Assembly (NCBI RefSeq): GCF_964355755.1
Contig: NC_092675.1
Coordinates: forward strand, 25,640,912-25,704,911
DNA: 64,000 nt
DNA from: Antedon mediterranea
Taxonomy: Eukaryota > Animalia > Echinodermata
Direction of reading: 5' to 3'
Shown here in pieces: positions 28,816-63,055 of the stretch (positions within the stretch are counted from its first letter, which is position 1; every line of letters starts with the position of its first letter). The position numbers and the translations under genes are program-made. Under the pieces are notes generated by a model that did no database searches, was not told the DNA's origin, and saw only the letters and a program-made list of their open reading frames with translations.

Positions 28816-31387
28816 GAAGCACTACCGAACATGTACATACATGCAAAATGTTAGCAGAAAAGGCAATTGCGTCATCTAACTACGAAATAATATTACTACT
28901 ACTTGACATGACCAGTGCATTTGACACGGTGCGGAGGAATACTCTATTCGACATACTGACACATATATTACAAGATGATGAACTACACATGTTGAAAGTT
29001 TTGATAAACAATGTAAAATTAAGCGTTCGAATTGGAAAACAGACAGGAAAATTGTTTACTACTACACTAGGAGTACCACAAGGTGACTGTATGTCTCCGA
29101 TACTGTTCACACTATACCTAGCAAAGGCACTCGAATCAGCAAACACAACACCACTACCCCTACAACAGCTTAATATCCAGATGCAGTATGCAGATGACAT
29201 TTCATTTATTAGCGACTCAAAAGAACACATAACTAAAATAAAGAAAAATGTAACAGAGAAATTAGCAGAATTCAATCTAAAGATAAACGAAAGTAAAACA
29301 GAAGAATACCTAATAGGAAGAAACACCGATAGTAAATGGGAAGAATGCAAATACCTCGGTAGTAACTTGGACACAGAAAAAGACATTAAAAGAAGAAAAT
29401 CACTAGCAGCTATGGCATATAACAAGCTGAAGTCGTCGCTAGAACACAAAACGATGTCTATAGACGTGAAATCCCGTTTGTTTGACGCATACATAGCAAG
29501 TATTTTCTTATATAACAGTGAACTCTGGGTACTAAACCAAAAATTACAAGAGAGTATAGATATATATCACAGGAAAATGTTGCGAAAGATGATAGATATT
29601 AAAGTAACAGATAGAGTGTGTAACACGAAAATATACGAGATAACAAAACAAGAAGAATGGAGTAAAAGAATTAAACGAAGGAGACTAAAATGGTATGGAC
29701 AAATAATTAGATTACCGGATGATACCCCAATCAAACAAACAATGAAGGAAACTAACAGGAAAGTAAAACGACCCGTAGGAAGACCAAGAAATAACTGGAT
29801 GAATCAAATAAAGAAAGACTTACAAGGACTAGTAGACACTAACACAATAACAAACCATCCTGCCATAAACAGAAAAAAATGGAAACAAATTGTGGAAAGC
29901 TGTGAATTGTTAATGTTATTGTAACTGTTAATTGTTAGTACAAACACCATTGGAAATAAGCTGTGTCAGCTTTACGGATGTTGTTTCGAGTACCGAAACA
30001 AACAAACTGAGTATATCATGTATTTGCATTTTGTGTTTTTTTTTGCGCCTAACGCATGTTAATGTTAATTACTGGTTATTAACAGTGAGTTGTTTGTTTT
30101 AAGCTGAGAGGTTAGCAGGAGCAGAGGTTTGTGTTGGAAATAACAAGGCTCCACCGTTTTCGGGTAATGCACAATGTGCATTGACTATATCACGAATGGA
30201 TGCAATCGCAATAAACCCTATAGAGATGTCATGCAACCCACCTATTTCTGGGCGGTATGTTACTGCATATAAACAGCTTCGAGGATATCTTACATTTATG
30301 TGAAGTAAAGGTTTACACAGGTGAGTACATATTAAACTTAGTAATAAATCCTTTACAGTTATTGCTCACCATCTATGGAATTTCTAAAAAATCATTAAAA
30401 ACAATTGTAGACCTATGCGTACAAAACACACCTTTAGGGCCATTTGTGGAGGAAAAAAACTAAAATTAATACCTATTTATAGTATAGTATTTATCAATAC
30501 TTTAAAGAGCTTAATTTTAAATTAATACTGTTATATCTCTTTTCGCTATTCATCGTGTCCGATAACGGGCTTAGGATCAAAATACGTATTATATGTGTAT
30601 TTGTATGTTCTTCAGATAATAAGGAACCAGATCTAGTGTGTCCTGAACCTATCATAGTTAACAACAGCACCGACCAGTACGAATATCCAGTCACCTGGAA
30701 GAACCCCATAGTAACAGACAATTTGCTTAACGATATATCAGCAACTTGCACACCTGCATCGGGATCCATCTTTGACGTTGGTTCAACAATTGTCACCTGT
30801 TCTGCGACAGATGGTACTGGAAATGTAGGAAGTTGTTCATTCGTTGTCCATGTCATGGATCAGACATATCTTTCTTGTAAGCACTGACTGGCATAACTTT
30901 TAACAGTACGTTAAACACTTATGTTGATGACTGATATTAATTGTAAGCAATAGCAAGAGAAAAGTAGACATTCATAACAATTCAATTCTACTGATTACTA
31001 GGCCTATCATCATTTTTATTGCATCATGGTTTTCCTTATTATTGGCATTATGAAATACATTTAGTTAGATAAACCTTTTTTAAAATTAAATTAAATTCAC
31101 ATATACAAATTATTATATCCAACCCTTAATACTCAATATTTAAATTTATTTTAAAACGTAGGTTTTTCTGATGAGGGCCATAAATTTATTAGCGCTAGTG
31201 GTCAAGTAGCAATTCTCGTAGTCCTATGTATATTCGTTGCTAATTTGGTATTAGCTTTAATTGTGGTTGTCAGGTACAGTAATATTCTGTTATTTTCATT
31301 ATTTTCAATTTTGATTAAAGCTTTTGAATTGGCGAAAGTTCAGAGAGGATGTATCTGGTGGGTAAAAATCTATGATAATATCATAAT

Positions 31388-35478: not shown

Positions 35479-38400
35479 ATGTTTTCGTCAGTATATACCA
35501 TTGTCTGTTTTATGACTTTTCTGCATATGTCGCAATCCAGAATCATTTCATCATGCTATGATACGTTCGAATTAGGTAAGTTATCCTATATCTATTTTCT
35601 CAATCATCTAATTTTATGTACAAATTTAAATAAACAATCGGGAATCAAAATCCAAATTGCGTAACCAATTAACACAGTTTAGTAATAATACTTATATTGG
35701 ACGGTTAAGTTAGGTAACGTTATCCTTAAATGTATTGTATTAGGCTGCTAAATTCATTTATTTCCATCATCATCTAAAGTAAAACAAAAACAAAACCCAA
35801 AACAAAGGAGAAATGAAGTGTTGTAATAAGTATCAACTAATGGTTTAGAATGAATGGTTTAGTGACTTATAGGCCGACACATTGTATTACACGATTTTAG
35901 TCTCCTGTAAAGTATATACATTCTTCTTAAATATTAACAGCGCGATACATAATTTCCAAACTATAACTTTATTGTTCCGAAATTTAACAACGTAAATAGG
36001 TAATTTGGAATGGAAAGAGTGGCAGAATTTCAAAACTTGGATGACAAATGGATTGTCTGTCGTTGGGACGACAGTTAAAATACGCTGCATTTTCAAAATG
36101 TTTACCTTTTAACACAATGCTCATTATGAAAATGTACCATTGATGAATATATAATAACTTTTAAAACGTTGATCAAAATTGTTTAGTGTCAGAGTTCAAA
36201 GAAGCAAGACAAATTTCAAGATATAATGTAGATGCTTTTTCTTCACACGCGGCTGACGGTGGAATAGATGGAACGTACAAGAAACGTTCATGCACGCACA
36301 CACGTAAGTGATAAATTGCAAAATGTTTTAACGAATTATCTATTTTGTAGGATTTTATACATATTCATATAACATAACAATACGTGTAGTAACGTATTTT
36401 TAAGAGCATCGACGGCATGTAAACCATTTCAAAATAAATAGTTTCTAATTCAAACTTTCTTTTCGATCGATCGCAAAGACTTCAGCGCAACGCAGAATAT
36501 AGGAATTGACCAATGACATTCGACTGCTCGAATAATCCGTCAAATCCGTGATGGTATTTTTGTCGTATTTTATGTAATGTAGGCCTAATTGATATTTCTT
36601 TCATTAAAGTTTTAGAGGATAGTACGTGGTGGTATGTTGATCTCGGAACAGAAACAGTAATTTCAAAAATTGTTATATTTAACAGAGACGATTGTTGTGG
36701 TAAGAAGATTAAATATCATATTTGAGTGATTTTTTACTCGGTATTATTCTGAATTCTATTATATTACGTATACTCTAATTTCTATTGCATGCGTGTAAGG
36801 TACACTTTCGTTGAAGAGTTTGTATCTATCCAATTGGACTTCTTGTACCAGTGGTCTAATGGTGGATTCCGAGTTCAAATTTCTTCTCACTCTCTCTCTC
36901 TCCCTCTCTTTCCCCCATATTTCCTCACTTTAGCGTTTAAATTATAAAAACTTTAGTTTATTTATAGGCTTATAATATATATATATATATTATATATAAA
37001 TCAAAGAGCTGCATAGGCAGGATATAGAAAAAAATCAAGATCAAATAAGTTAAAACTGCCTCAATATAGATTTATTTTAACGACATGTTTCGGGCATAGC
37101 CCATCATCAGGTGAAAAGAATTGTAACAAAGGATAACATATATAAGTCACAAAATTACATAATAAAACAAATCAGCCAATCAAAGATGTTAACAAACAAA
37201 AGGCATAGTTATAAAGGCACACCTCCAAAAGCTATGGTGTACGAAGCAGGAATGGTTGCTTATAAAGCAGGAAATTTAAAACAAAGACAAAAGCTTCAAG
37301 TGTAAATAATTGTTAATATGTGAATGTCTCTGGCAAAATTAATGTTTAAAGGATCTAAATTGTACATTTATGCCGGTAGGGGCAAGAGTGCCAAGCTTTA
37401 CAATTATTCTTTCTTCTATAATTCTATGAGATGTCTCAGAACCATTACATACTTTAACACCAGAAATTGTAATATCCGAAAGGGAATGCTCATTATTACA
37501 AAAATGGGTGGCTACAGGTAATCCGGGAGTCTTTAGTTTAATAGACCTTAAATGTTCTACAAACCTATCACCTAACCTGCGTTTAGTTTCACCAATATAA
37601 AGCATATTACATTTAGTACACGAAATACAATAAACTAGATTTCTAGTGGTGCACGTAATACGATCTGTGATAACATAATTACCAGAAGGTCCTACTATTT
37701 GGTTTGAACATGAAACGTAATTACATGTCGAACATCTATTTCTATTACATTTGAATATTCCAGTTGATTCATTACCTTTGTTTTGTAATTTAGATTTAAC
37801 TAAAGTGTCTTTAATGCTTTGATCACGTCTGTAAGCTATCATGGGTGGTTCTTGAAAAATATCTTTTGTAGCGGATTTATCTTCAGTCAAAATTGAAAAG
37901 TTATCGCGGACAATGTTAATAACCTTCTTATTCATAGGATGATACGTGAGGACTAGAGGTATGCGGTCACAAGCATTTGTATTACGTGTAGGTTGCAATG
38001 TGTCCTCGTGCGTTAACTGGCAAACTTTTCTTAGAGATTTCACAGTAATGTCAGATGGATATTCGCGTGCATTGAAAAAATCGATCATCTCAGATGCTTT
38101 GATGTTAAAGTCATCATCATCGCTACATAAACGTCGAAGTTGCGAATACGGTATAGCATTCTTACAAGCTGGAGGATGCGAAGAGTTGTAATTTAGATAA
38201 GTGTGCGCGTCAGTATCTTTGTAGTGGACGGATGTAGAAAGACCAGGTTTATCAATAGATAAACTAATATCAAGGAAAGGCACACACTTGTCAGAAATTT
38301 CATGAGTAAACTTTATAGCAGGATGAAAATTGTTCACGAAGTTAATGAACTCATTAAGTTCATCTAAAGTTCCCGACATAACACCAACACAATCATCAAT

Positions 38401-38537
38401 ATACCGTTTGAATAAATCTGGTTTCTTTCCCTTAAAATCTCGTAACACATTCTGCTCAAAATACCCCATAAAGAGGCAAGCAAAGTTAGGTCCCATTTTT
38501 GTACCCATGCTTATCCCAGAAACTTGCCGAAAAAACT

Positions 38538-38574
<37 letters not shown>

Positions 38575-41500
38575 ATCATTAAATAAGATAATTTATTTCA
38601 GTTTTGTACTTTTTGCATATTTTCAAATGTATATCACTTGCTCGTTGTATTAACCTGTAGTTCTTTCTTTATTTAAGCGGATAGATTATCAGGAGTAGAG
38701 GTTCGTGTTGGCAATAGTCAAGTTTCGCCCTTTTTTAGTAATGCACAATGTAGATCGACTATTTCACGAATGAATGCACTTTTGCATTTTGTGTTTTTTT
38801 TTGCCTAACGCATGGTAATGTTACTGGTTATTAACAGTGAGTTGTTTGTTTTAAGCTGAGAGGTTAGCAGGAACAGAGGTTCGTGTTGGAAATAACAAGG
38901 CTCCACCGTTTTCGGGTAATGCACAATGTGCATTGACTATATCACGAATGGATGCAATCGCAAGAAACCCTATAGAGATGTCATGCAACCCACCTATTTC
39001 TGGGCGGTATGTCACTGTATATAAACAGATTAGAGGATATCTTACCTTATGTGAAGTAAAGGTTTACAAAGGTGTGTACATGGTAATAAAGCTTTCGCTA
39101 TTGTTGCTAAACATCATGTGTACACTTAGACAAATCACATGTTTTTCCACCAAGGTTTACAGAAATCTACGCTGATTCTAATTTCAAAATCACAATTTTT
39201 ACTGCGCATTTCCTAAATATGACCATATCAAAAAACGAAATTATCAAAATACTGTGTACATCAACAATAAATTAATCCTAAATCATTTTTTTTTAATAAA
39301 AGGGCTTTACTTCATTTTTTTTTCAAATCGAGATTGTTTGAGTATTTGATTTGACTAGTATAATTTATGGTATGACCAATATATAATGAATCAGCTTTAT
39401 ATTAGCGGGTACGATTCTCAGATGAAAAGTTTCTTTGATTAAATTTGTGTTTTTGCAAATATAAAACATGTGAAACTACGTGGAATATTTTATATTGATA
39501 TACTCCTAAAAACCAGAATACTACCTGTACATTGAAAAACAAAAACGCGTTTTGGTCAAAAGCGACATTTTGTAGATAAGCTCCTTTTCAACATCGGTCA
39601 GCATAGTTGGGCCTATTTTTATTTTCATTTATTATATTTCTTGTTATTGATCTTCATACAATAAAACCAATAGGTTCAAAAGAAGGAATGTAAACCTCTG
39701 TCATTATCTTTATAGACATTGGAAAACCTAAAGTTATGTGTCCAGATGATATAGTGGTAAATGTTGATAATAATCAGACTTTACATCAAGTTAATTGGAA
39801 TCCTCCTGACGTTTCTGATAATTTCCATACGGATCTTTCGGCAATCTGTTCACCGTCATCAGGTTCTTTATTTCCAGTCGGATTCACCAAAGTTACTTGT
39901 TTAGCTTCTGACGCAACTGGAAACCAAGGAAACTGTTCATTTGTTGTAAATATTGCAGGTCAGGTCAACTATTTATTATTTATAATAATGTATTGTCAAT
40001 ATAATCTGTATGTATTGGTATTTGTTTAACATATATATTTTTCTATATTTGCGATATTTTATATCGTATACATGTCAATTTAATCTATAGGTATGTGTAT
40101 TTGTTCAATATATATACTTCTATATATTTTTATATATTTGCAATATGTTATACCGTAAATACAAATTGTAAGTAGTAGTTGTACTAAGATGACATCGGGT
40201 ATGAAGCGTCTCACATACACACAGAGCCAACATTGCATCTTGGACTTGCACAGTGTATGGACTCTAACCTTACGGTTTCCATTAAATATACCATTTCATG
40301 CTATCATTCTAAATAACTAACTGTACTTTCAACCTATTGCATTCATCTTTTTTTCATTCCATCCATCTTATCTTGGTGAAAAGGGAGGATACTACATTTT
40401 CCTCCCCTGAGTTTATAGCCTCTCTACTCGAACACAAATAAGAACACAAATAAGATAGTTTAACAAGAAAATTTTAATCATGTATTTTACCGCCATTTTT
40501 CATTTCTACATTTAAATTAACATCGTATCTAAAATTTTAAATGAGAAAATGTATTGTTAATACTGAATTCTGGCATCTTATTATGTAAATATACCGGTAT
40601 TTTAACTACTCTAAACACTTACTTTTAATTGTCACAAATGTACTTATATGTATATAATATATTCATCAATGAGAATTTAAATAAACGTGAGAAGAACTCA
40701 CACAAGACAAAAAAAAAATAATGTATTGCGGAATTACAGAGGCCAACTAGCTAGGCATCCATATATGACGTTCGTTCTTATCGTGGTTTCTTTCAACATT
40801 TTCAATTCATTGAATACGCAATGTCATAAATCAAAACTAATTGATAGGCCTAATTTTTATGTGTGCTAAGACTTTCAGGAATGGAAATAAGAACAGATAG
40901 TCTTTAAACAGAAACTATTACATTTTAAATAGACACTATCCAGAAATTAAAAAAATATCGGACAACTTCCTTCTGAACAATATCCAGACACCTAACGCCT
41001 ATTAAAATAACCACCTAGCCTAAATTAAGCATTGAGCCAAGCTGTTTTTGTGGTAAGAGCAGCTAAGTTACTCAGTACGCCGGGGATCAATTTATTAATT
41101 ATAAGTCTTATTTGCACATCGTAATAATATATTATTATTGTATATTAGATAATAAACAACCAGACTTAATCTGTTCCAAACATAATAGTAAAAAAAAACA
41201 CATTGAAGAATAATAATGAAGAAAGAACTATGATCCAAACTGTAGTTGGGCATAAAGGTACAAGTTGTTTGTTTTTTCAGATGATAGAGAACCTGACCTC
41301 ATTTGTCCTGAGCATATCACGGTGGGCAACAATACTGACCAGTACGAAGATCCAGTAACCTGGAGTGACCCGACAGTGACTGACAATTTGCATAAAGACA
41401 TATCAGCAACATGTACACCTGAATTGGGATCAATCTTTGACGTTGGGTCAACTATTGTCACGTGTTCTGCAACGGATGATATTGGAAATGTTGGAAGTTG

Positions 41501-43475
41501 TTCATTCGTTGTCCATGTCATAGGTCAAACATTTATTTCTTGTAAGCATAATATTTATCAATACTTTAAAGAGCTTAATTTTTTAAATTAATACTGTTAT
41601 ATCTCTTTTCGCTATTCACCGTGTCCGATAACGGGCTTAGGATCAAAATACGTATTATATGTGTATTTGTATGTTCTTCAGATAATAAGGAACCAGATCT
41701 AGTGTGTCCTGAACCTATCATAGTTAACAACAGCACCGACCAGTACGAATATCCAGTCACCTGGAAGAACCCCATAGTAACAGACAATTTGCTTAACGAT
41801 ATATCAGCAACTTGCACACCTGCATCGGGATCCATCTTTGACGTTGGTTCAACTATTGTCACGTGTTCTGCGACAGATGGTACTGGAAATGTAGGAAGTT
41901 GTTCATTCGTTGTCCATGTCATGGATCAGACATATCTTTCTGGTAAGCACTGACTGGCATAACTTTTAACAGTACGTTAAACACTTATGTTGATGACTGA
42001 TATTAATTGTAAGCAATAGCAAGAGAAAAGTAGACATTCATAACAATTCAATTCTACTGATTACTAGGCCTATCATCATTTTTATTGCATCATGGTTTTC
42101 CTTATTATTGGCATTATGAAATACATTTAGTTAGATAAACCTTTTTTAAAATTAAATTAAATTCACATATACAAATTATTATATCCAACCCTTAATACTC
42201 AATATTTAAGTTGATTTTAAAACGTAGGTTACTTAATCAAACTGTGCAGAATATTTTAATGACTTAAAAGATTGAATATTCTTTTAAAAGCTGCGTGGCA
42301 GGGCAGTTGATTTATCATCAGCCTACCTGTACATGCGCAATATTCTCAACATGAAATGGAAGGAGATTATGCACAGCACAAACATACGAAATTAACAAAT
42401 CAATGGAAGGGTACTACACTTATTGAACAGTATATGACATATTTTAAAATGTTGTTATAGGTTATTCTGATGAGGGCCATGAATTTATTAGCGCTAGTGG
42501 TCAAGTAGCAATTCTCGTAGTCCTATGTATACTCGTTGCTAATTTGGTATTAGCTTTAATTGTGGTTGTCAGGTACAGTACTATTCTGTTATTTTCATTA
42601 TTTTCAATTTTGATTAAAGCTTTTGAATTGTTGAAAGTTCAGAGAGGATGTATCTGGTGGGTGAAAATCTATGATAATATCATAATGGCTCTGTAGTCTA
42701 GTGGTATGATACTCGCCCTGTAAGCGAGAGGTTGCAGGTTCGAATCCCGCCAGAGACATTTTTTCATACAACTAAAAAATAAAGAACTTTCGCCAATGCT
42801 CGACAAGATTATGAGATCATGTTCCGAATAATGAGCACTGTTTCTATAATTTACAGTATGATTTTTATATAACTTTCACAGTGATACGCAACACATTGAT
42901 TTATATATATATTTGTAAATATACCGTATGTATGTATGTTTATAATAATACAAAAAGGCGGATCATTTGGCTGATCTATTCTCTTTATTTTTTAAGGTTT
43001 AAAAAGGCGTCTACGAATCATTTGTAAAAAGTATAAAATGAAAAATCCTATACTCTCTCTCCCTTTCAGAACAATGGAATATTGAACAATGTTATTAGAT
43101 TGCATGCTATTATTCCTAAAACAATATAATTGCTATTAATAATTACTTACAGCAAGTATAATTCAATAAATTGTTATTTATTTTCATATGACTGTTTTAA
43201 CTAACTAATTAAATGATTTTAAACAAATTAGGCTAGTTTATTGAAATTTGTTTTGTTCGTTTTATGTGGGTTTTTATGCAAATTCTTCAATATTTAACAT
43301 TGTATAAATCTAACAAATAAATAAGAATTAAACAACAATTTGTTTTTAATACACATTTAAAACTGATGTGTTATTTAGGTACTATAAATGGAAATGGAAA
43401 TATAAGCAGGACACATTTACAGTCAGGAAGAAGAAAGAAGATGATGCAATATACTGTTCTGTATTGCAACCATAA
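35479..43475 (+). CDS. Gene C: FTP - 3xHYR - TM receptor with tyrosine-motif tail, about 491 aa
   Basis: Exons 35479-35575, 36187-36303, 36610-36699, 38856-39071, 39716-39958, 41281-41523, 41682-41942, 42461-42572 (TM VAILVVLCILVANLVLALIVVV) and 43379-43475 (RYYKWKWKYKQDTFTVRKKKEDDAIYCSVLQP*). The 1476 nt are in frame if the acceptor at 38856 is used. The H-x26-R-x-D-x4-R motif is intact. Confidence 0.8.
36990..38540 (-). mobile_element. 5'-truncated Penelope-like retroelement (RT plus GIY-YIG endonuclease) inserted in a (TA)n tract
   Basis: ORF 37339-38508: MGTKMGPNFA, RYIDD, FLD, CxxxRCxxC, VYCISCTKC..YIGETKRRLGDRFVEH. Flanked by TA repeats. Absent from the gene D paralogous intron at about 52410-52465. 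Confidence 0.93.
37075..37117 (-). ncRNA. Minimal type I hammerhead ribozyme in the Penelope terminal region
   Basis: Minus strand reads UUUUCAC-CUGAUGA-U-GGGC-UAU-GCCC-GAAAC-AU-GUC-GUUAAAA: conserved core, stem II, very short palindromic stem III, and stem I with one mismatch. Confidence 0.75.
42687..42758 (+). pseudogene. tRNA-like sequence (TGT at the anticodon position, Pro-like body); probably a SINE head or tRNA pseudogene in the TM-tail intron
   Basis: GGCTCTG/CAGAGAC acceptor stem, A box TAGTCTAGTGG, CTCGC-CCTGTAA-GCGAG anticodon arm and B box GGTTCGAATCC. It has C instead of U33 and stem mismatches. Confidence 0.65.
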
Positions 43476-46029
43476 CCTACTCATTTACTAAGAAAAAAAA
43501 CCCCCATGAGATGGTTAGAAATTACTGTTCACATTTAATTGCTGGGTTTTGATTCTTTTTAAATTTAAACCTAATTCACTAACTGAAAATTTATAATAAG
43601 TATTATAGTTTCAGATTGGCATATTTAGCAATTTTCATTAAAATTGATTTCAGAATTAAAGTTTTTCCTAATTAATATAATTATCCGGTAACATTATAAC
43701 GGTTGAATTAGTGAATCTATGTATTATTTGCTATTGTCTTGCTATGCTATTATTATTGCTTTATTTTAAAATCAAACAACTGATAAATCTGGAATGGCAC
43801 ATGCCATACATCTTTATTTATATAACAATTAGGTCTAATTTGTAAAATGTCATTACCAACATAATGTTATTAACTAAATGAATCTAGAATCATTGGACAA
43901 TGTTACTGTGCTTGTGTTGATATTGTATCTAATACTCCCAACAACAACAACACATGTTTTTTTATGCGTTTCCAGTGAGTATATAGTCAACTTAACATGT
44001 AAATACTGCTAAACTAATAAATAGTGTAATTTATTATACTGTTAAATACATTGTGAATACACAAACATAATCAAAGAATGGATGTCAACGACTTCCGATG
44101 ATGATTCTATTTAACATCAAAGTTGGAAAAATACTAATATTAAAAACCACTTCCTGTAAATCCGAAGACGGATTTGCAGCAAATTATTGTTATTATATTA
44201 ATATCTTTCAGATACATTGTGTAGTTTATATTCAAATAGCAGAAGCAAGATAGAAATAAAGTGTTTATAAGCAACTTAGACCTCTGTTCTGTACTCTTAC
44301 TTGTGGTACCTGTATTCTTAATAAGCTATCCGTCCTGGTTAGGCCCTATATATGTATTTGGTAATAAGATTCAAGAAGATTCAAGATTTAAGGAATTGTA
44401 TTGCTCCGTTTAAAATGGAAATTCATTTTGCTTGGGTGGCATAATTAAGAAAATAATAGACAATCAAACTACAAGAAAAATACATCAAATTGCATAAACA
44501 CTTAGGCCAATGTTAACATACTATTAAAACTATTAAAAATCATTAAATTTTAATATAAATCTTACAGTATAAAGTTATCGTCGAACACATATGAATGCTA
44601 TTTACAACAAATGACTTCCTAGTTCTATTTAGATTAGCTGTTGGTGGTCGTAGTCTAATCTATTAAACTTGTCATTAGGAAAACGAGCCCTATTTAACGT
44701 GAGCTTTTAGTACCCCGGCTAACCCGGGGTACTATAATTGCCTGTAATTGTTTTGACCCTGATCAGTCTTGTTGATGGGTAATTAACAGAACAGTGGCCA
44801 TCAATCATGCAGGAAAGTATCTGGGTACTAAAAGAAGCCAAGCCCACTTTGTTTGCCAACAGCCAATCACCGACAGCATCAGGTTTCAGTTACAGCATGT
44901 TTTTTAATGATTAGGTAATAGTTTGATTTCATGAAATAAATGAATATTTATAAAATAGCCTTTTCACGCCTTATAATTATTTAAGTAAGCCTTTATTTCC
45001 ATGTTTCCTTTTCGATTTTGTACATTTTAACAACATTGTATGGGGAGCTACAAAGTTCAACCTTAGATTGAGTAGTCAAGCGATCAACCAATTACAATTA
45101 AATAATTTTAATTTTATTAATTTACCAATGAAATACATAGCCTACTACAAATGGATTCTGAAATAAACTGGGATGGTGCGATGGGATTTGGTAGGGATGT
45201 CAAGAGGTACACCATCACATCAGACTCGGGCTGAGGTATAGGCAGGGAGTTGTTATTAATAACAACTCCCTGGTATAGGTAGGCCTACAATTTTTGAGAA
45301 TATGAGCGGGAAATTCAAATAAAATAATGTAGCCGTAGGGGGTGGTACCCATACGCTTCCCAAAAAGTGTTTGCGCTATATTAGTATATAGGACCAGATA
45401 TATGAATTAATTAATAATACTAAAAAATCTAAAAAATAAATCTTTTTATTTAAAAAAATGTAATTGAATGAATGTTAATAAACATAAACGAAACCTATAT
45501 AAATAACAATCTTTTTTATTGTGTAACAAGTTGATGTTATACGATATTATAATAGAGGGATTATGCCTCATTTTAGTTGTTTATGTTATTCTAAGAAAAC
45601 TGCACATAGGCCTACATACATTATGTTCACTTTAGCACTCTAGTATTTTAAAACATTGATGACTAGCAATTATACACGCCCGGGCGGGTTTCCTATGTAG
45701 TTTTAAAACTTCACAGTACATTCCCGATCATTTGATAACTCATTATGCAGATGCCCTAAAATGCACCCACCTCCCCAACACACACCCGCACTCGGGGATT
45801 TTTTAACTTATAATGTTAAACTTCCTGGTACAAATTCTATTGCAAACCCCGGCTCTATGACGGTTTTCAAATGCAGTTAAAACATACCCCAGTTCACATT
45901 ACTCATGTGGTCATTGATACTAACCCCAGCAAATCACTAAGCCTCCAACCCCTCTAACCTCTGCACACTGTGATTTTTTTAAATATAGTTTAAAACCTTC
46001 CCAGTACAATTGTGGTCATACAATCACGA

Positions 46030-46790
46030 AATATTGTGCTACCTACATTTGAGAAAGTGTGCAATCCATTAAAAAATTGTGCTCCTCTTTGAGAAATTGT
46101 GCTACCTTTTTGAGAAATAATTGTGCTAACCATTCGGGAAATTGTGCTACCTCTTTGAGAAATTGTTCTACCCATTCGGGAAATTGTGCTACCTCTTTGA
46201 GAAATTGTGCTAACCATTCGTGAAATTGTGCTACCTCTTTGAGAAATTGTGCTAACCATTCGAGAAATTGTGCTACCTCTTTGAGAAATTGTGCTAACCA
46301 TTCCGGAAATTGTGCTACCTCTTTGAGAAATTATGCAATCCATTCGGGAGATTTTGTGCTACCTCTTTGAGAAATTGTGCTAACCATTCGGGAAATTGTG
46401 CTACCTCTTTGAGAAATTGTGCTAACCATTGGGAAATTGTGCTACCTCTTTGAGAAATTGTGCTAACCATTCGGGAAATTGTGCTACCTCTTTGAGAAAT
46501 TGTGCTAACCATTCGGGAAATTGTGCTACCTCTTTGAGAAATTGTGCTAACCATTTGGGAAATTGTGCTACCTCTTTGAGACATTGTGCTAACCATTCGG
46601 GAAATTGTGCTACCTCTTTGAGAAATTGTGCTAACCATTTGGGAAATTGTGCTCCCTCTTTGAGAAATTGTGCTAACCATTCGGGAAATTGTGCTACCTC
46701 TTTGAGAAATTGTGCAATCCATTCCGAAAGTTGTGCTACTTCTTTGAGAAATTGTACGTACGGTATACCTATTTGAGAAATTGTGCTATC
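46030..46790. repeat. Minisatellite with a 42-bp unit made of two related 21-mers
   Basis: Alternating GAAATTGTGCTACCTCTTTGA and GAAATTGTGCTAACCATTCGG, degenerate at both ends. Confidence 0.95.
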
Positions 46791-46941
46791 TTTTTCACGT
46801 TTTTTCATCCCCTTCATAATCCATATTCCTATATCTTACCATGCACCAACTCATTCCAAATGTTAAAGGATACAAGATAATACTGTGACGGGATTTAATA
46901 TTATGTGCCAACAATACTTTATCGCATTATGCAGGTTCACA

Positions 46942-50909: not shown

Positions 50910-53900
50910 ATGTTTTCGTCAGTATATACCATTGTCTGTTTTATGACTTTTCTGCATATGTCGCAATCCAGAATCATTTCATCATGCTATGATACGTTCG
51001 AATTAGGTAAGTTATCCTATATCTATTTTCTCAATCATCTAATTTTATGTGCAAATTTAAATAAACAATCGGGAATCAAAATCCAAATTGCGTAACCAAT
51101 TAACACAGTTTAGTAATAATACTGATATTGGACGGTTAAGTTAGGTAACGTTATCCTTAAATGTATTGTATTAGGCTGCTAAATTCATTTATTTCCATAA
51201 TCATCTAAAGTAAACTAAAAACAAAACCCAAAACAAAGGAGAAATGGAGTGTTGTAATAAGTATCAACTAATGGTTTAGAATGAATGATTTAGTGACTTA
51301 TAGGCCGACACATTGTATTACACGATTTTAGTCTCCTGTAAAGTATATACATTCTTCTTAAATATTAACACCGCGATACTTGTCATAATTTCCAAACTAT
51401 AACTTTATTGTTCCGAAATTTAACAACGTAAATAGGTAATTTGGAATGGAAAGAGTGGCAGAATTTCAAAACTTGGATGACAAATGGATTGTCTGTCGTT
51501 GGGACGACAGTTAAAATACGCTGCTTTTTCAAAATGTTTACCTTTTAACACAATGCTCATTATGAAAATGTACCATTGATGAATATATAATAACTTTTAA
51601 AACGTTGATCAAAATTGTTTAGTGTCAGAGTTCAAAGAAGCAAGACAAATTTCAAGATATAATGTAGATGCTTTTTCTTCACACGCGGTTGACGGTGGAA
51701 TAGATGGAACGTACAAGAAACGTTCATGCACGCACACACGTAAGTGATAAATTGCAAAATGTTTTAACGAATTATCTATTTTGTAGGATTTTATACATAT
51801 TCATATAACATAACAATACGTGTAGTAACGTATTTTTAAGAGCATCGACGGCATGTAAACCATTTCAAAATAAATAGTTTCTAATTCAAACTTTCTTTTC
51901 GATCGATCGCAAAGACTTCAGCGCAACGCAGAATATAGGAATTGACCAATGACATTCGACTGCTCGAATAATCCGTCAAATCCGTGATGGTATTTTTGTC
52001 GTATTTTATGTAATGTAGGCCTAATTGATATTTCTTTCATTAAAGTTTTAGAGGATAGTCCGTGGTGGTATGTTGATCTCGGAACAGAAACAGTAATTTC
52101 AAAAATTGTTATATTTAACAGAGACGATTGTTGTGGTAAGAAGATTAAATATCATATTTGAGTGATTTTTCACTCGGTATTATTCTGAATTCTATTATAT
52201 TACGTATACTCTAATTTCTATTGCATGCGTGTAAGGTACACTTTCGTTGAAGAGTTTGTATCTATCCAATTGGACTTCTTGTACCAGTGGTCTAATGGTG
52301 GATTCCGAGTTCAAATTTCTTCTCACTCTCTCTCTCTCCCTCTCTTTCCCCCATATTTCCTCACTTTAGCGTTTAAATTATAAAAACTTCAGTTTATTTA
52401 TAGGCTTATAATATATATATATATTATATATAAACAAATCAGTGCAAAGAACATATATATATATAAAATATCATTAAATAAGATAATTTATTTCAGTTTT
52501 GTACTTTTTGCATATTTTCAAATGTATATCGCTTGCTCGTTGTATTAACCTGTAGTTCTTTCTTTATTTAAGCGGATAGATTATCAGGAGTAGAGGTTCG
52601 TGTTGGCAATAGTCAAGTTTCGCCCTTTTTTAGTAATGCACAATGTGCATTGACTATATCACGAATGGATGCAATCGCAAGAAACCCTATAGAGATGTCA
52701 TGCAACCCACCTATTTCTGGGCGGTATGTCACTGTATATAAACAGATTAGAGGATATCTTACCTTATGTGAAGTAAAGGTTTACAAAGGTGTGTACATGG
52801 TAATAAAGCTTTCGCTATTGTTGCTAAACATCATGTGTACACTTAGACAAATCACATGTTTTTCCACCAAGGTTTACAGAAATCTACGCTGATTCTAATT
52901 TCAAAATCACATTTTTTACTGCGCATTTCCTAAATATGACCATATCAATTGTAAAAAACGAAATTATCAAAATACTGTGTACATCAACAATAAATTAATC
53001 CTAAATCATTTTTTGATAAAAGGGCTTTACTTCATTTTTTTTTCAAATTGAGATTGTTTGAGTATTTGATTTGACTAGTATAATTTACGGTATGACCAAT
53101 ATATAATGAATCAGCTTTATATTAGCGGGTACGATTCTCAGATGAAAAGTTTCTTTGATTAAATTTGTGTTTTTGCAAATATAAAACGTGAAAATGTGAA
53201 ACTACGTGGAATATTCTATATTGATATACTCCTAAAAACCAGAATACTACCTGTACATTGAAAAACAAAAACGCGTTTTGGTCAAAAGCGACATTTTGTA
53301 GATAAGCTCCTTTTCAACATCGGTCAGCATAGTTGGGCCTATTTTTATTTTCATTTATTATATTTCTTGTTATTGATCTTCATACAATAAAACCAATAGG
53401 TTCAAAAGAAGGAATGCAAACCTCTGTCATTATCTTTATAGACATTGGAAAACCTAAAGTTATGTGTCCAGATGATATAGTGGTAAATGTTGATAATAAT
53501 CAGACTTTACATCAAGTTAATTGGAATCCTCCTGACGTTTCTGATAATTTCCATACGGATCTTTCGGCAATCTGTTCACCGTCATCAGGTTCTTCATTTC
53601 CAGTCGGATTCACCAAAGTTACTTGTTCAGCTTCTGACGCAACTGGAAACCAAGGAAACTGTTCATTTGTTGTAAATATTGCAGGTCAGGTCAACTATTT
53701 ATTATTTATAATAATGTATTGTCAATATAATCTGTATGTATTGGTATTTGTTTAACATATATATTTTTCTATATTTGCAATATTTTATATCGTATACATG
53801 TCAATTTAATCTATAGGTATGTGTATTTGTTCAATATATATACTTCTATATATTTTTATATATTTGCAATATGTTATACCGTAAATACAAATTGTAAGTA

Positions 53901-56900
53901 GTAGTTGTACTAAGATGACATCCGGTATGAAGCGTCTCACATACACACAGAGCCAAAATTGCATCTTGGACTTGCACAGTGTATGGACTCTCCCCTTACG
54001 GTTTCCATTAAATATACCATTTCATGCTATCATTCTAAATAACTAACTTTCAACCTATTGCATTCATCTTTTTTTCATTCCATCCATCTTATCTTGGTGA
54101 AAAGGAAGGATACTACATTTTCCTCCCCTGAGTTTATAGCCTCTCTACTCGAACACAAATAAGAACACAAATAAGATAGTTTAACAAGAAAATTTTAATC
54201 ATGTATTTTACCGCAATTTTCATTTCTACATTTTAATTAACATCGTATCTAAAATTTTAAATGAGAAAATGTATTGTTAATACAGAATTCTGGCATCTTA
54301 TTATGTAAATATACCGGTATTTTAACTACTCTAAACACTTACTTTTAATTGTCACAAATGTACTTATATGTATATAATATATTCATCAATGAGAATTTAA
54401 ATAAACGTGAGAAGAACTCACACAAGACAAAAAAAAAATTATGTATTGCGGAATTACAGAGGCCAACTAGCTAGGCATCCATATGACGTTCGTTCTTATC
54501 GTGGTTTCTTTCAACATTTTCAATTCATTGAATACGCAATGTCATAAATCAAAACTAATTGATAGGCCTAATTTTTATGTGTGCTAAGACTTTCAGGAAT
54601 AAGAACAGATAGTCTTTAAACAGAAACTATTACATTTTAAATAGACACTATCCAGAAATTAAAAAAATATCGGACAACTTCCTTCTGAACAATATCCAGA
54701 CACCTAACGCCTATTAAAATAACCACCTAGCCTAAATTAAGCATTGAGCCAAGCTGTTTTTGTGGAAAGAGCAGCTAAGTTACTCAGTACGCCGGGGATC
54801 AATTTATTAATTATAAGTCTTATTTGCACATCGTAATAATATATTATTATTGTATATTAGATAATAAACAACCAGACTTAATCTGTTCCAAAAATAATAG
54901 TAAAAAAACTCATTGAAGAATAATAATGAAGAAAGAACTATGATCCAAACTGTAGTTGGGCATAAAGGTACAAGTTGTTTGTTTTTTCAGATGATAGAGA
55001 ACCTGACCTCGTTTGTCCTGAGCATATCACGGTGGGCAACAATACTGACCAGTACGAAGATCCAGTAACCTGGAGTGACCCGACAGTGACTGACAATTTG
55101 CATAAAGACATATCAGCAACTTGTACACCTGAATTGGGATCAATCTTTGACGTTGGGTCAACTATTGTCACGTGTTCTGCAACAGATGATACTGGAAATG
55201 TTGGAAGTTGTTCATTCGTTGTCCATGTCATAGGTCAAACATTTATTTCTTGTAAGCATAATATTTATCAATACTTTAAAGAGCTTAATTTTTAAAATTA
55301 ATACTGTTATATCTCTTTTCGCTATTCACCGTGTCCGATAACGGGCTTAGGATCAAAATACGTATTATATGTGTATTTGTATGTTCTTCAGATAATAAGG
55401 AACCAGATCTAGTGTGTCCTGAACCTATCATAGTTAACAACAGCACCGACCAGTACGAAGATCCAGTCACCTGGAAGAACCCCATAGTAACAGACAATTT
55501 GCTTAACGATATATCAGCAACTTGCACACCTGCATCGGGATCCATCTTTGACGTTGGTTCAACTATTGTCACGTGTTCGGCAACCGATTATATTGGAAAT
55601 CTAGGAAGTTGTTCGTTTGTTGTCCATGTCATAGGTCAGACCTTCAATGGTAAGGAGTACTTTTATTTATATAGAGCTATGATATTATTTACAAACTTAC
55701 AGAATTGACCAGTATGACAAACAATATTTTAAATTTTTTTTAATCTACTACAATATTTTAATAAATTAAGCAGCCGAGGCTACCTGGGGTTAAGGAGTAA
55801 ATAATAATTATACAATTAGTATAAAAGTAAAGTAGTAAAAAAACTAAGGAAAATGGTGAATGAAAATTGAATAAATGAAAAAAAGAATCGCCATTTTGCT
55901 TTTCGTTATATCAAAATAGTTTACTAAAATCGTCTATATGAACATTTACTTTCAAGTAGGACTAGTTAGGCCAACAAAAATAAAATACGTAGTATTATAA
56001 TGCTTTAATTATTTTATCTGGATATTTAATAATTGAGATATAGTTATTGTCCAAAAAAGACGAACAATGCCACAAATAGCCAGAAGGCTGAAACTGTGAC
56101 ATTTTACAATACAAAAGTTAAAATCCGTTTAAATATTGTAATTATTATACTTTTATTATCATTTTTTTCTTTTTTTTATAGTTAAAAACAATGTACTTGA
56201 TAAACAGCCCGTGCTTATTTGTCCTGAAAACATTATTGTTAACAACAGTGGCATTGATTTAATGAGGACACCAGTAACTTGGACTAACCCGACAATGAGC
56301 TCTGATAATATTTTACCAACAATCTGTGCTCCGGCATCGGGATCGGGGTTTGACGTTGGTTTCACTACTGTTACATGCTCTGCTGTTACTGATGACGTAA
56401 TACGATGTCAGTTTGTTGTTTACGTTGAACAATATATTTCAGGTAAGACAATACATGTTCGACGTTCTGTTTTTTTTAACATGATGTACACTATAAGTGT
56501 ACACAGTCAAGCGGATCAGAAGGGTAATATATCCCGTATTACCTGTTTGATGTTTCTACGCGCGCGTTGTTTATGTAGTGCATTGTATTTTTATCGTTGA
56601 GCGCATGCGTAGTTGTAATTTCAAACCCGTATTCGACGGTTAAAAAAGCTAATCGTAATCGTCGAAAGCTCCCTATTGTTGTTGTGATAGCTAGAGCTCA
56701 AAATGGATGAAAATAAAGGTCGTCGATTTCAATGTGTACACTAAGAGATAAAATCGTTGCACCCTGCTTGTTCTTACAAAATACGGGAAATATCTAGCCT
56801 ACGTTCTGGTTCCATGGAATTTTCTTATATTTTGTTATACACTTGACAGGATCATCATTATCATCTATCTCGTTTTAAAATAGTTCACACACTTTCATTT

Positions 56901-58137
56901 GTTTGTTTTCATTTTACAACCCGGATTATACAATATATTTATATACATGATAAAAAAATAAAAAAAACAATAATAGCTCAGTACCACCAGTAACCCGTAT
57001 CACTGTAATTCCTTTTCGGTTAATCGTATCAAATTAGAATTTATATTATCATAATCTTATTTCTTAAAGCTACCCATTTTTCTATACTTGTTTCTTTATT
57101 GTTATATGTTTCACATTCAATGTTATATAACATATTGCTTTTAAATGAATTCCATAAAGATTTACCCACTGGCTTATTTAGTGCAGATAACATTTTTATT
57201 CTATAAATAGTAAATGCTGCAAAAGTGTAAATATAATCTATTAGCTTATCTCCCGTTCCTAGTATTAATTGTTTAAATGATATATTATTGTGATTTAAAC
57301 TTACAAAGATACTAAGCATTTTCCTCCAATATTTCTGAATAAATCTACAACTAAAAAACAAATGATTTTCATTTTCAATTTCCGTAATATCTGAAGATCT
57401 GAAGTGATAGTTTAAATTTGGCGCCAAGAATGTACAGAAAGTAATTTGTGGGTACTTTAAAATTATAGTTATTATTATTAGGTTATTCGTATGATGAACA
57501 TGTCTATACGACAAGTTTGAACAAAGCAGTGATCGTAACACTTTGTGTAATGGTTGTTATTATGGCATCTGCGTTGTTTTTGGTTGTAAGGTACTGTACC
57601 ATGTCATTTTTGGAAATTCCGATTTTCAATAAACCAGTAAATATAAGGTGTCTTATTTAAATTAACTTCAACATACATACTACCGCTTACCACTATTTAT
57701 GAACCACCGTGATTCTAAACCTATTTAATTTAACTTTCGCCGATGAGCTATGCTCGACGCGATTATGGGATCATGTTCCAAATATGAGCACTGTTTCAAT
57801 AACTTGACAGTATGATTTATATATAATTTACTCAGTGCTACGCAACACAATCCAAATATATACAAGTTTGTATTGGGATTGTTTTTTGTTACGGGTAACT
57901 CACTATGTAATGAAATTAGCGGACATACGGAAACCCTAATATAAAATTGATGAAAAGAAACAGGTGGTTCGAAAATGAGGTTGCAAATTAATATAATGTA
58001 CAGCAATAGAACGCTTTGTGTTTATATTTTTATTTTCATTTGTGCTTTTTAGATACTATAAATCGAAGTTGAATCATCACACAATTGGAGTCACCAAGTT
58101 AGAAGGTGATGCGATGAGCTGGAAGATTCTGGAATAA
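50910..58137 (+). CDS. Gene D: FTP - 4xHYR - TM receptor with C-type ectodomain and A-type tail, about 567 aa
   Basis: Exons 50910-51006, 51623-51739, 52046-52135, 52573-52788, 53442-53684, 54991-55233, 55392-55634, 56182-56442, 57482-57590 and 58053-58137. The 1704 nt are in frame, all introns are GT-AG, and the motif NRDDCCADR is intact. Confidence 0.88.
56940..57435 (-). mobile_element. Decayed 3' fragment of an L1/Tx1-type LINE
   Basis: ORF 57041-57541 includes ENENHLFFSCRFIQKYW, resembling the zf-RVT C-terminus of Tx1/L1 ORF2. Confidence 0.55.
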
Positions 58138-61100
58138 TAATACGACGTACTTGTTGTCTAAAAATCATACTTTAATGCACTGTTAACAATATTAAAATAG
58201 AGACATTTAAACTATATAATGGATTGAAACAACATCTTAACATGAAAGCATGAAGCCCATTTATATTTCCTTAGCTCTCTTATTAACCTATTGAATAACT
58301 GAAACTATTGTATTGAAGTTACAGCTTAGATTCAATTAATTGAAAGAAGAATATAGCTTCAACTTCGTTGAAGTTAGCTCGATAGTTATAGATCTAAAGA
58401 TGCACTCCTAGTCAAATTACCATTCCATACAGGAGTTCTAGTAGCACCAATGGGCAAACGCTATAGAAAGAACCTCTGAAAAAAAGTATTTGTAGGCCTT
58501 ACTTAGGCATAACTGTTACTATCAAAATACGATGTATGTAAACGTCCTAATAAAATCGTTTTACAGGAAATTCTGAACAAAATGGGCCTAGAAGTGGTTC
58601 CTGGTGATAAAATCTAAAACCATAAAAGCTTGGCAATAAAGGGAATGAAACGGATGGTATAGAATGATAACAAGTTATTAAAGACTGAAAAGGAAATTTA
58701 AAAAAAATTACCACCTGAAAAATGTTTTTTTTCTATAACTATAGCATAAACCGTAGTAGCATTGATAATGATATATAATAATTAATATTATTATTTTAAG
58801 CATGATAACGTTTACATAACATATTGCCTAATTTTGAGTTTTTTATGTAACTCCATGTTTTATAGAAACATGTTTAGGCTATAAGAATGTATCTTTCGAG
58901 AAACATAAGAAATATATTAGATAAGAACAATCTTTATTTTGATGACCACAAGGCGAATTTGTTTTCCTTGAAGCTTAATTACACACACTATAGACCTACA
59001 GTAATTAAAATTAATACAATATAATAATAAAGATTAAAATTAGAAAAAAAAACATGATGGAAAAAAAAACATTGAGTTGTATTGAGTTGAGGACAAATGA
59101 ATTCCTACATCGAGTGCTTGCTATTAAGATTGTGTCAACCACATCCCGGTGAACAATCTATTTACCCGAAGAATCAAGAGATCACCAACAATCCCAATAA
59201 GTATTCTTAGAAAACAGATTTGCAGATGATTCGTTTTATTAATATGATATCTTTTACACATTGTGTAGAATGATACATATACTGTTTAACCTCGTTATCA
59301 TTGTTTTGGTAATACACTTTCTGTACCCACAGAAAAAAATTACACATATTGTAGTAATGAAAACGTAATCTGTATATAGGCTAGGGTACAAATTCCCATA
59401 CTGTAGTTTTTCTAAATGGTACTATAATTTGAAAACATTTCGGTAATTTTGTCATAAATACATTCATATCATTTCCGTCATAGAGATGATTGATTATGAT
59501 AAAGATGGGAGGTAGCAGGGGCAGAAAAAATTGGGAATTATGGGCGGCAATAGTGGGTTCTACATTTTTGATACCACAAGTCTAGATACTAGTTTATTTT
59601 AATAATATATAACATATCGGACCGAACGTTAAATCAACAAAAATACAGTCGCGATATGAACGGAACGAAGTACAGGTATAGGCTACTAGAATTATACGCA
59701 TGCGCAGATTAATATTTTGTATAAATTACCGTTTCCTCGTTTCCTTTACGTCTACCTTCCCCTTTCGTCTACTAACTGAGAATGCAGATGTGTACAACGA
59801 CGCGGCAAGAAGCTTGCAAAGGAAGACACCGATTTCAGTTTCTTTAAAATAATGATAGTATTATTTCTATTGAGATGAATTCGATGATCATAATGCAGCA
59901 TGGGAATTTTGATAAATGTTTGGAATATAAATAACACTTAAATACTATACTATTTTTACAAAAATTATATTTACTGAATGTGTAACAAAATTGATCGTAT
60001 TTGATACAACATTTCTTTAGAATTCCTTCTAATTTTCCATTTATAGATTGTTCCTAAATTTTACAATTCTCCATTTCCTTAAATATTTTAACAAATGCAA
60101 AAAAAGTATAAAGAATGGTAGAGTGTTGTGATTGTGTGTAGTAGTAATACTGGGATACAGAAGATTTTGAACCAATTATAGGTAAGTCTTTTGGTTGCTT
60201 TGAATACGCGTTTCCTGGTGAACCTTATACACATTTCACATATTAAATAAATGATGTCACATCTGATGGCCCATTATTACACAATGTTTCCGTCAGTGTA
60301 CAGCTTCGTCTGTTTTATGGCTTTTCTGCATATATCGACATCAAAAATCATTCAGTCATGCTACAATACGTTCGAATTAGGTAAGTCAAGTTTATTTTCA
60401 TACATCTTTAAAATCTAATATATAGGCTACTAAGTAGGCCTATAAACAATTTAGTAAAATACTGAAATTGGAATTTTGAGAAAAACCGTAAGTTTTTTTT
60501 AAACTGTATTGTATTTTATTTTATTGTAAGACTAGATGATTTATCAATTTACGATCATGGGAAAATGTAGAGATACCAAAGAGAAATGCATGGTTGTACA
60601 TTACAATTCTCATTTAGAAAAGGTATGACTTTCTAGTCAAAACAATATAATAATAATAATACGATTTACCTCTGCAGCAGACATTCCAATTTTTAGTATA
60701 CATCCGAATAGGTCGACTACCCCAAAAACTATAACTGTAATCTTAATCAAGACTAAAACAAATAAGGAATTTGGGCTAAAATTATGAACCGAATTCACTA
60801 CACACCCAGCGTTGTTTCTAAATTTGATTGTAGTTATCTGCCAATTGAAATGACAGCATGTCTTTATAAGTATGACATTGTACTGTTGAAGAATAATTAT
60901 AGCTTTTAAAATGTTTGTCAAAATTGTCTAGTGTCAGAGTTCAAAACAACTAGACAAAGTACAACACATGGAAATGCTCCTGCTTCGTATGCTGTTGACG
61001 GTGGAATAAATGGACAGTACAGCAAACGTACATGTACGCACACTAGTAAGTGATAATGCGTTTTAATTAATTATCTATTTCTAGGATTGTATGCATATTC

Positions 61101-63055
61101 TATAACAATACTTGTTAACGTAGTTTTACTAGCATCAAAAACATAAAACATTTCCAAATAGTTTTCTTATTCAAACGTTAAATAATTTAGTAGTTGTATT
61201 TGTTTTATAATGTAAACCTTGGCTAAATACTATAAACATGACTGACATCCTATATATCCTATTCCGCCTGCATTATTGTTTTCCAATCCTTCTTAAGCAG
61301 AGATTATTTATGGTATACAGTTGGAAATTATAGGGGCGATATATAAGCATGAACTTCGATCAAATATTCCATAATCAATCTCATGAATTACTTATGTTTC
61401 TGCCTTAACCTGATAGGAGAAAAACATGACACTAACGGCCTCACCTGCAATAACATGTATTCAATGGGCTTAGCGTATGTTACAAACGATGAATTGGGTT
61501 TCCTATCCGAAACATAGTTCAATCGAATGATCAATGAAAAATGATAACCGAAAGTGAAACATTAAGAACAAGCAAGGGTTACAATATTTTCCAATATTGA
61601 ACAATACTTCATGTTATCATTCTATGGCAAGGTGAACGTTTCTGTATATTTTTTGTTATGAATAGACAATTGATAGATTCTTAAACAGTATTTTTATTTT
61701 TTTTCTAATTGAAAGCTCTCATGAATAATCCATGGTGGTATGTTGATCTCGGAACGGAAAAAGTAATTTCAAAGATTGTTATATTTAACAGAGAAGATTG
61801 TTGTGGTAAGTAAGAACAATATATTAAACTCATTATCTATTTGCATGTACATTTAATTCTAGTCGTGACCGCGGTCGAAGGTGTTAAAGAGTCGCTATTT
61901 ATCTCCATAGACTTACCATTAAAGTACAGTAGTCTAATTTAGGATGTATATTAAGCAGAATACGACATTAAGTCTCCTTTTAATGTATATGAATTGTTTA
62001 ACCATAGTCTAATCAACCTATATTATCGATGGGCAGTTAGTTATTATACTTTTAAACTATTTTCGACTATGCTGACTCAGCCTGGTATTTTGGTATAAGT
62101 TCATTTCTCAAAAAATAAACTCCAGGTAACCTAAAATAAAAGTGTACGGTTTATTCTCGACATCGCCTCGATAGAAACAATTAAACGCGCGCAGTTGGTT
62201 ATCTGAACATAAGTTAACTTGTTCAAGCCTTAAATTATACCTTAATGTTGATACCTCTCTAGCAAATAATTTTACAAAGATTTTCAAAGGAAATCAAACG
62301 AACATTTTGTAATTCCTAATATCAAAGGGATAGCTTCGAAAACATTTTATTTATGAATAATCTTCCTTCAGATATTAAATAAGCATAAACGTGCTAATAA
62401 AGATTCATCTTGGTAATGTTCATGACTACACTGAAAGTAATGAAAACTGTTAAATAATGCTGTAAATTGTTAATGTTATTGTAACTGTTAATTGTTAGTA
62501 CAAACACCATTGGAAATAAGCTGTGTCAGCTTTATGGATGTTGTTTAGAGTACCGAAACAAACAAACTGAGTATATCATGTATTTGCATTTTGTGTTTTT
62601 TTTTGCCTAACGCATGTTAATGTTACTGGTTATTAACCGTGTGTTGTTTGTTTTAAGCTGAGAGGTTAGCAGGAACAGAGGTTCGTGTTGGAAATAACAA
62701 GGCTCCACCGTTTTCGGATAATGCACAATGTGCATTGACTATATCACGAATGGATGCAATCGCAATAAACCCTATAGAGATGTCATGCAACCCACCTATT
62801 TCTGGGCGGTATGTCACTGTATATAAACAGATTAGAGGATATCTTACCTTATGTGAAGTAAAGGTTTACACAGGTGAGTACATATTAAATTTGGTAATAA
62901 AGCCTTTACAGTTATTGTTCACCATCTATGGAATTTCGACATTGAATTCGTCTAAAAAATCATTAAAAACACATCTTTGTGCCAATTGTAGACCTATGCG
63001 TACAAAACACACCTTTAGAGCCATATGTGGAGGAAAAAAACTAAAATAATACCTA
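58013..63055 (+). repeat. Dispersed segmental duplicate of 14320-30475 lacking the TE insertions
   Basis: Near-identical tail exon, 3' UTR, intergenic region and exons 1-4 (D to E versus A to B). Confidence 0.92.

Follow-up and report, generated by a model that had tools for sequence, protein, structure and literature searches.

How does an exon come to consist of two halves that belong to different members of a gene family? Mosaic exons are common in recognition-gene arrays, the steps behind them having usually been erased, and patchwork exons between paralogues are usually read as the product of direct gene conversion. The stretch of Antedon mediterranea DNA analysed here (the window, 64 kb in length) raises this question at exon 4 of two neighbouring lectin genes, which is doubled in one and fused in the other. 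Self-comparison and translation of the window revealed five tandem F-type lectin paralogues, A–E, all on the + strand. Gene A (6971–14444) is open for 489 aa. Gene B starts at 19574, corresponds to the proteins P0002/P0009 and is truncated. Exons 1–8 of gene C lie within 35479..42572, and its last exon was not found in the window. Gene D (50910..58137) contains 10 exons and encodes 578 aa, and gene E, which starts at 60284 and corresponds to P0008, runs off the window.

The 10-exon model of D is identical, letter for letter, to the NCBI protein XP_071954522.1 of the same species (P0001). The protein layout in the array comprises a signal peptide, one F-type lectin domain encoded by exons 2–4, HYR repeats and a transmembrane segment. 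Single exons gave no lectin match in Pfam, and the whole D protein gave one. Protein searches found at least seven further genes of this lectin–HYR kind in the same species and relatives in Anneissia japonica, the paralogues outside the window being known here from proteins alone. A protein for C is not among the protein-search matches, an absence that says little because gene A, with its long open frame, is also missing from them and clusters hide members. Genes C and D form one lineage, with identities of 96/96, 117/118 and 87/88 in exons 1–3 and a divergence of only ~1% outside the rearranged parts; their fourth exons are ~14 kb apart. Genes B and E form the other lineage, whose identity to the C/D lineage is 0.76–0.90 in exons 1–3 and 0.88 in exon 5.

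Exon 4 of C is doubled. An earlier note on this DNA had described a half-exon followed by a B/E-type intron end and a full exon 4, and the coordinates and sequences are as it claimed. The half-exon (38678..38778, + strand, as are all features of exon 4 given below) is 101 nt long and of the C/D lineage's own type, matching positions 1–74 of D exon 4 at 74/74. Its end had been placed at about 38780; homology reaches 38778, and the next two bases (38779..38780), which are unassigned, form an out-of-register junction seen both in the junction alignment and in a contig of run X2. The B/E-type end of intron 3 with its acceptor follows (38781..38855, 75 nt), at 74/75 to B, 72/75 to E and an identity of about 0.71 to C's own intron end. 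The full exon 4 (38856..39071) has 216 nt, is of B/E type to about position 213 and shows three differences from E. The half-exon and the full exon are identical at 78/101 positions (~77%) and contain the same 14-nt stretch, GTAATGCACAATGT, at 38738..38751 (exon positions 61–74) and at 38916..38929. The half-exon extends 27 nt past this repeat, and this tail (38752..38778), present in C only, carries five differences from the B/E type in an open frame. In C the acceptors lie at 38678 and 38856, the D acceptor is at 52573, and the donor list contains no strong donor site after the half-exon.

Exon 4 of D (52573..52788, 216 nt; residues 102–173 of P0001) is fused, with the crossover within codons 122–126. 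When the half-exon and the full exon of C are joined at any of 15 equivalent breakpoints (positions 60–74), the result is D exon 4 with 0/216 mismatches, which bears out the proposal that D combines the 5′ half of the first with the 3′ half of the second at their common repeat. The fused exon is indeed an in-frame mosaic lectin exon. Pairwise alignment of exon 4 of C and D shows a single 178-nt gap. The affinity of D switches sharply along the exon: it differs from the full exon of C at 18/60 of the first 60 positions and at 0/156 thereafter (Fisher p = 1.2e-11), and from the half-exon at 0/74 positions at first and then at 5/27. Direct 14-nt repeats lie 178 bp apart in C, one copy is retained in D and no bases are added. 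A loss of 178 bp between the two repeats of a C-like arrangement is the simplest origin of D exon 4; it may have been the repeat-mediated deletion proposed earlier or an unequal exchange, which would give the same sequence.

Nine public sequencing runs, none recorded as RNA, match the stretch or part of it, and six of them were compared as assembled contigs rather than raw reads (X1, X3, X5 and X6 for a long stretch; X2, X3, X5 and X7 for a smaller one). Run X2 contains an 89-nt contig over 38722–38810 with 0 differences at depth 31.8, extending 57 nt to the left and 32 nt to the right of 38778|38779, and only 30 nt to the right of 38780|38781. This contig supports the doubled exon and rules out an assembler error as the source of the C junction. 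It excludes such an error without showing a second individual, since sample S1 may be the assembly's own source animal and hence maybe the same individual. A second X2 contig (38722–38767, 46 nt, depth 60), shorter than the 31-letter bridging rule requires, has four differences; since this is exactly the number of sites that separate D from the half-exon over that interval, we take the contig for the D form. Run X3 yielded a contig with the C-private G38815 at depth 12.4 and an intron 4 contig with D-type letters at 26.8. Judged from these contigs, both exon forms are present in S1. C-type contigs stand at about half the D-type depth in X2. Such a ratio of 1:2 would be expected if one haplotype carried C and both carried D, but contig depth is a weak measure and not a copy number. 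E-type depths disagree between X2 and X3.

On the long stretch, the intron 4 letters of the X1 and X3 contigs are all of D type, and the share of 31-mers is 0.64 vs 0.642 expected from D and E alone. An S1 without C, first suggested by these D-only letters, was overturned by the C-specific contigs on the smaller stretch. In runs X6 and X7 (organism B) the B/E-type intron end and exon are covered and the half-exon is uncovered, and in X5 and X3 most of the half-exon is without cover; such holes prove nothing. None of the runs compared contains a contig that spans C to D.

The shape of the B/E-type tract in C suggests how the exon was doubled. The tract measures ~290 bp, starts abruptly at 38781 and ends by exon position 213. 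Candidate donor lineages are the intron 3 end and exon 4 of gene B (30029..30320, exon of 217 nt) and of gene E (62583..62873), both on the + strand; the two genes still possess these sequences, and C matches E at positions 18, 27, 158, 163, 174 and 177 and B at 61. Within exon 4 the tract differs from E at positions 61, 109 and 214, with 113/115 alike over positions 102–216. Outside it, the identity of C/D to E is 0.77–0.88 in exons 1–3, falls to 0.68 over the first 100 nt of intron 4 and reaches 0.88 in exon 5. The 3′ end of the tract is in register and lies in a stretch that is conserved in gene A too: at position 214 genes A, C and D carry the base A where B and E carry C, and own-lineage sequence goes on from there into intron 4 without any change in length. 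The 5′ end is out of register, old exon position 101 being joined to donor intron position −75, and there the junction microhomology amounts to 4/5 bases alike at best, plus the two unassigned bases. A tract with one end in register and the other out of it has the shape that one-sided gene conversion leaves. C and D agree in having G at position 109 and in their 3′ border, and neither mark occurs in B or E.

These observations make it probable that D exon 4 derives from a C-like doubled exon in two steps, a one-sided conversion followed by a repeat-mediated collapse. In the first step, exon 4 of the C/D ancestor would have suffered a break and been repaired by copying ~290 bp from a B/E-type paralogue. 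The copy would have kept register where the 3′ end of the exon is conserved, extended upstream over the entire donor exon and a further 75 nt of the donor's intron, and then been attached by out-of-register end joining at old exon position 101. The 3′ half of the old exon would have been lost, which leaves the arrangement seen in C today. In the second step, which would have taken place on a descendant allele, recombination between the two copies (101 bp, 77% identical) within their 14-nt perfect stretch, by microhomology joining, single-strand annealing or unequal exchange, would have removed 178 bp and left one exon of normal length. Finally, an unequal crossover in the array would have set the uncollapsed allele (C) beside the collapsed one (D). 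C and D may therefore be former alleles that now stand in tandem, as their ~1% divergence outside the rearranged parts suggests. The description of the exon as caught mid-process was overstated, as C would be the surviving older state in a neighbouring copy.

Regarding the direction of change, everything in the D exon is obtainable from C by one loss, and C has 27 nt of exon and 75 nt of intron that are absent from D. The five differences of the 27-nt tail have a binomial p of 7e-6 to 2e-4 at a background of 1–2%; neutral decay as the origin of the tail was rejected, since five changes in 27 nt are too many at that background. Read in frame, the tail encodes RSTISR, which appears as GSTISR in P0038, DSTISR in P0040 and ALTISR in the B/E type. 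Against eight outgroups the half-exon tail scores above the B/E tail in five, equal in two and below in one, and random changes at five sites reached an equal outgroup score in 982/20000 trials, a borderline 4.9%. Taken on its sequence, the tail is likely a relic of an older exon, and C to D is the likelier direction because the tail looks like such a real older exon. An intact old-type exon 4 was not found, and the ancestral state is a reconstruction. On the order of insertion first and collapse second, the combination of an own N-terminal part and a B/E C-terminal part arose already with the insertion into C, and the collapse in D returned nine own residues; D and the product of the full exon of C differ at nine residues within 102–122.

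In the main rival account, which we reckon unlikely, an old allele that was still intact underwent in-register conversion by, or unequal exchange with, a B/E-type exon (possibly the full exon of C itself) and so gave the D exon, C being a sister product or the donor. Deletion and exchange give identical final sequences, and the array holds other independent chimeras, in gene B and in the third HYR exon of D. However, G109 and the 3′ border that C and D have in common are absent in B and E, and an independent origin of the two exons would need later homogenisation. C and D are identical over exon positions 61–74 and 102–216, and a later homogenisation over these parts could have erased the evidence of common origin.

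That C is the derived form, a D-type allele that received a 178-bp B/E-templated insertion and whose 27-nt tail is the product of error-prone repair synthesis, is in our judgement very improbable. D-type contigs have about twice the C-type depth in S1 (60 vs 31.8, X2) and C has a private 1.5-kb insertion, both in favour of a derived C, but the five changes in the tail extend over 22 nt, leave the frame intact and shift the peptide towards other paralogues, and their density of 5/27 is of the order of the divergence between half-exon and full exon upstream (18/60). We give hardly any credence to a false duplication, in which the assembly placed two alleles of one locus in tandem: the ~1% distance between C and D away from the rearranged parts, the half depth of C-type contigs and the want of a contig linking the two genes agree with it, but their 3′ tails differ, the spacer between them recurs once upstream, the 1:2 depth, a weak measure, is better explained by C on a single haplotype with D on each of the two than by alleles at 1:1, and both exon forms would be real even so.

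The doubled exon raises the matter of what gene C can encode. Read through from the first acceptor, C reaches a stop, as the earlier note had predicted, and this TAA lies at 38806–38808 rather than near 38816, giving a product of 144 aa. With the half-exon skipped, 465 aa can be read without a stop, up to and including the transmembrane exon. C is thus not necessarily dead, and judged from its reading frames it would yield a full-length protein only if splicing skips the half-exon. Run X5, guessed to be a probable RNA run from its exon-only cover and a GT–AG joint between exon 4 and exon 5, contains one contig (depth 5.68) that outlines a candidate cryptic GT–AG intron of 155 nt (38701..38855, + strand) from the interior of the half-exon to the full exon. 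This 38700-to-38856 splice shifts the frame and leads to a stop after 112 aa. It was rejected as proof that C is expressed, being a single contig of that depth with other readings. On its downstream side the contig has G at 38873, where C in the window has A and X5's E-like contig has G; the same cryptic donor exists in D, and read-through from D to E would give the same join. The contig may also be chimeric, because its first 26 letters match 7275–7300 on the minus strand, in intron 1 of gene A. On paper, splicing could also yield in-frame micro-exons (60 or 72 nt), and none appears in the contigs of the runs compared. Intron 3 of C carries, within a TA run, an insertion of ~1.5 kb that is absent from D (37000..38540, minus strand). 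It contains a long open frame without a Pfam family at E 0.001, and we take it from its motifs to have the look of a Penelope-type retroelement.

Since the His–Arg–Arg triad and six cysteines are in place, we predict a folded fucose-type lectin, anchored in the membrane, as the product of D. By sequence, its residues 1–121 derive from its own lineage and 127–172 from the B/E lineage. The F-type lectin motif and the residue numbering were taken from the available text of the review PMC5712786. The basic triad His...Arg-x-Asp-x4-Arg/Lys is present in D, where His70, Arg97, Asp99 and Arg104 align with His52, Arg79, Asp81 and Arg86 of the eel agglutinin (AAA); the His–Arg spacing in D is 26, the same as in the AAA numbering, and the review gives 24 in that text. 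The pocket residues come from D's own lineage, because the crossover (codons 122–126) falls after the triad. All six domain cysteines are aligned with those of AAA, including the pairs Cys50–Cys146 and Cys108–Cys124. The sequence AVDGG at 54–58 contains the h2DG of the cation motif h2DGx (x = N, D or S), with Gly at x. D matches 1k12 (AAA) at E 1.3e-21 and 3cqo (MsaFBP32) at E 8.5e-39. The predicted model has a pLDDT of 81–91 over residues 71–180 and lower values before, and it superposes on 1k12 with a TM of 0.70 on the target over 151 columns, at rank 33 behind cadherin-like matches to the HYR repeats. The triad and disulfide cysteines are thus aligned with those of AAA and MsaFBP32; unlike these lectins, which are soluble, the D protein also has a transmembrane segment and four HYR repeats.

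The sugar pocket differs within the family, as three paralogues among the proteins compared (P0017, P0038, P0010, P0012 and P0040) do not match the His–Arg–Arg pattern. Gene A (6971–14444) has R-V-V-C-C instead of R-x-D-C-C and departs from the fucose-binding motif. Comparison of P0017 with P0038 shows an annotated isoform of another array member that is without lectin exons 3–4.

Chimerism is the rule in this array. In gene B (30104–30481), E-type exons 1–4 are joined within intron 4 to a C/D-type intron 6, two HYR exons being missing; a 1-nt frameshift near 30294 lies in its exon 4, and the NCBI products have 155 aa and 92 aa. In D (55579–58140), the third HYR exon is of B/C type until close to its end, where it turns A-like, the fourth HYR and transmembrane exons are 72–78% like A, and the last exon with the following spacer is ~99% like A by substitutions. 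The 3′ tail of C is B-like and that of D is A-like.

Mobile and repetitive DNA is found at several places in the window. Intron 1 of gene A contains ~175 bp between 14-bp direct repeats (7180–7193 and 7355–7368), likely a small mobile insertion, 26 letters of which, reversed, form the loose end of the X5 cryptic-splice contig. An intron of A also contains, on the minus strand, a 442-aa reverse transcriptase frame (10188–11513; Pfam RVT_1), and further retroelement fragments lie in intron 3 of B. A minisatellite array (46027–46795) is located between C and D, in a 4-kb stretch absent from the B-to-C spacer. Upstream of the array, an open frame of 333 aa rich in Q, T, V and P (1693–2691), for which no Pfam family was found, is probably an exon of an unrelated gene.

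Events of both kinds are described in Trypanosoma brucei. According to the accessible part of PMC3045614, one-sided conversion, which combines homologous recombination with microhomology end joining, was shown experimentally to copy 28–1084 bp, and microhomology deletions used microhomologies of 5–20 bp with a mean deletion of 284 bp; a title on one-sided invasion is also cited in the available text of PMC4888836. As in the events reported there, the C tract keeps register at only one of its ends, its ~290 bp is within the range, and so are the 14-nt repeat and the 178-bp loss in Antedon. In the T. brucei work, as far as that part describes it, the events were induced and caught singly, whereas here both would have occurred in succession at one exon, in a natural animal gene array and with weak microhomology at the insertion junction. 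By analogy, we infer that the repair mechanism of T. brucei may apply to this crinoid array.

Two animal systems offer further parallels. In oyster sperm bindin, recombination among F-type lectin copies creates new combinations of N- and C-terminal domain parts, according to the accessible text of PMC5712786, and there too retroelements and microsatellites lie nearby. In that account the exchange takes place in a mid-domain intron and produces many variants per species, whereas in Antedon the crossover is inside an exon of a membrane-anchored lectin–HYR gene, with one documented event. The human GYP(B-A-B) hybrid glycophorins are a textbook case of a paralogue tract that creates composite exons (PMC11073628, available text). 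As described there, a short tract from a tandem paralogue makes a composite exon and alters splice-site use, as in Antedon; unlike Antedon, the glycophorin parents are highly similar, the conversion is in register and a pseudoexon is reactivated, whereas the exons compared here are ~77% identical and the doubled intermediate survives. A literature search, with most subscription papers outside it, returned no description of this locus or gene family.

Repair is known to have outcomes of both proposed kinds, and chimeric lectin domains have been described before; the uncommon part is the surviving doubled intermediate, and the value of the locus lies in a clear example, not in a new principle. 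A plausible precursor and its product stand 14 kb apart with breakpoints at base level. More generally, we suggest with some doubt that patchwork exons of paralogues diverged by 20–30% can form by a two-step detour, in which a one-sided, out-of-register paste doubles the exon and a collapse at microhomology then turns it into a clean mosaic in frame, and that this crinoid array keeps both stages, the intermediate possibly still segregating, while recombining the halves of a lectin domain. Along such a detour, the gene can still splice to the pasted copy while its exon is doubled. If the order holds true in populations, the locus would provide a test in nature of the way in which strongly diverged paralogues exchange sequence; it would also test whether skipping of the broken half can keep a gene with a doubled exon functional. 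As to the lectin itself, the union of its own fucose-pocket residues, all of which lie before residue 105, with the C-terminal half of a sister gene may tune glycan preference.
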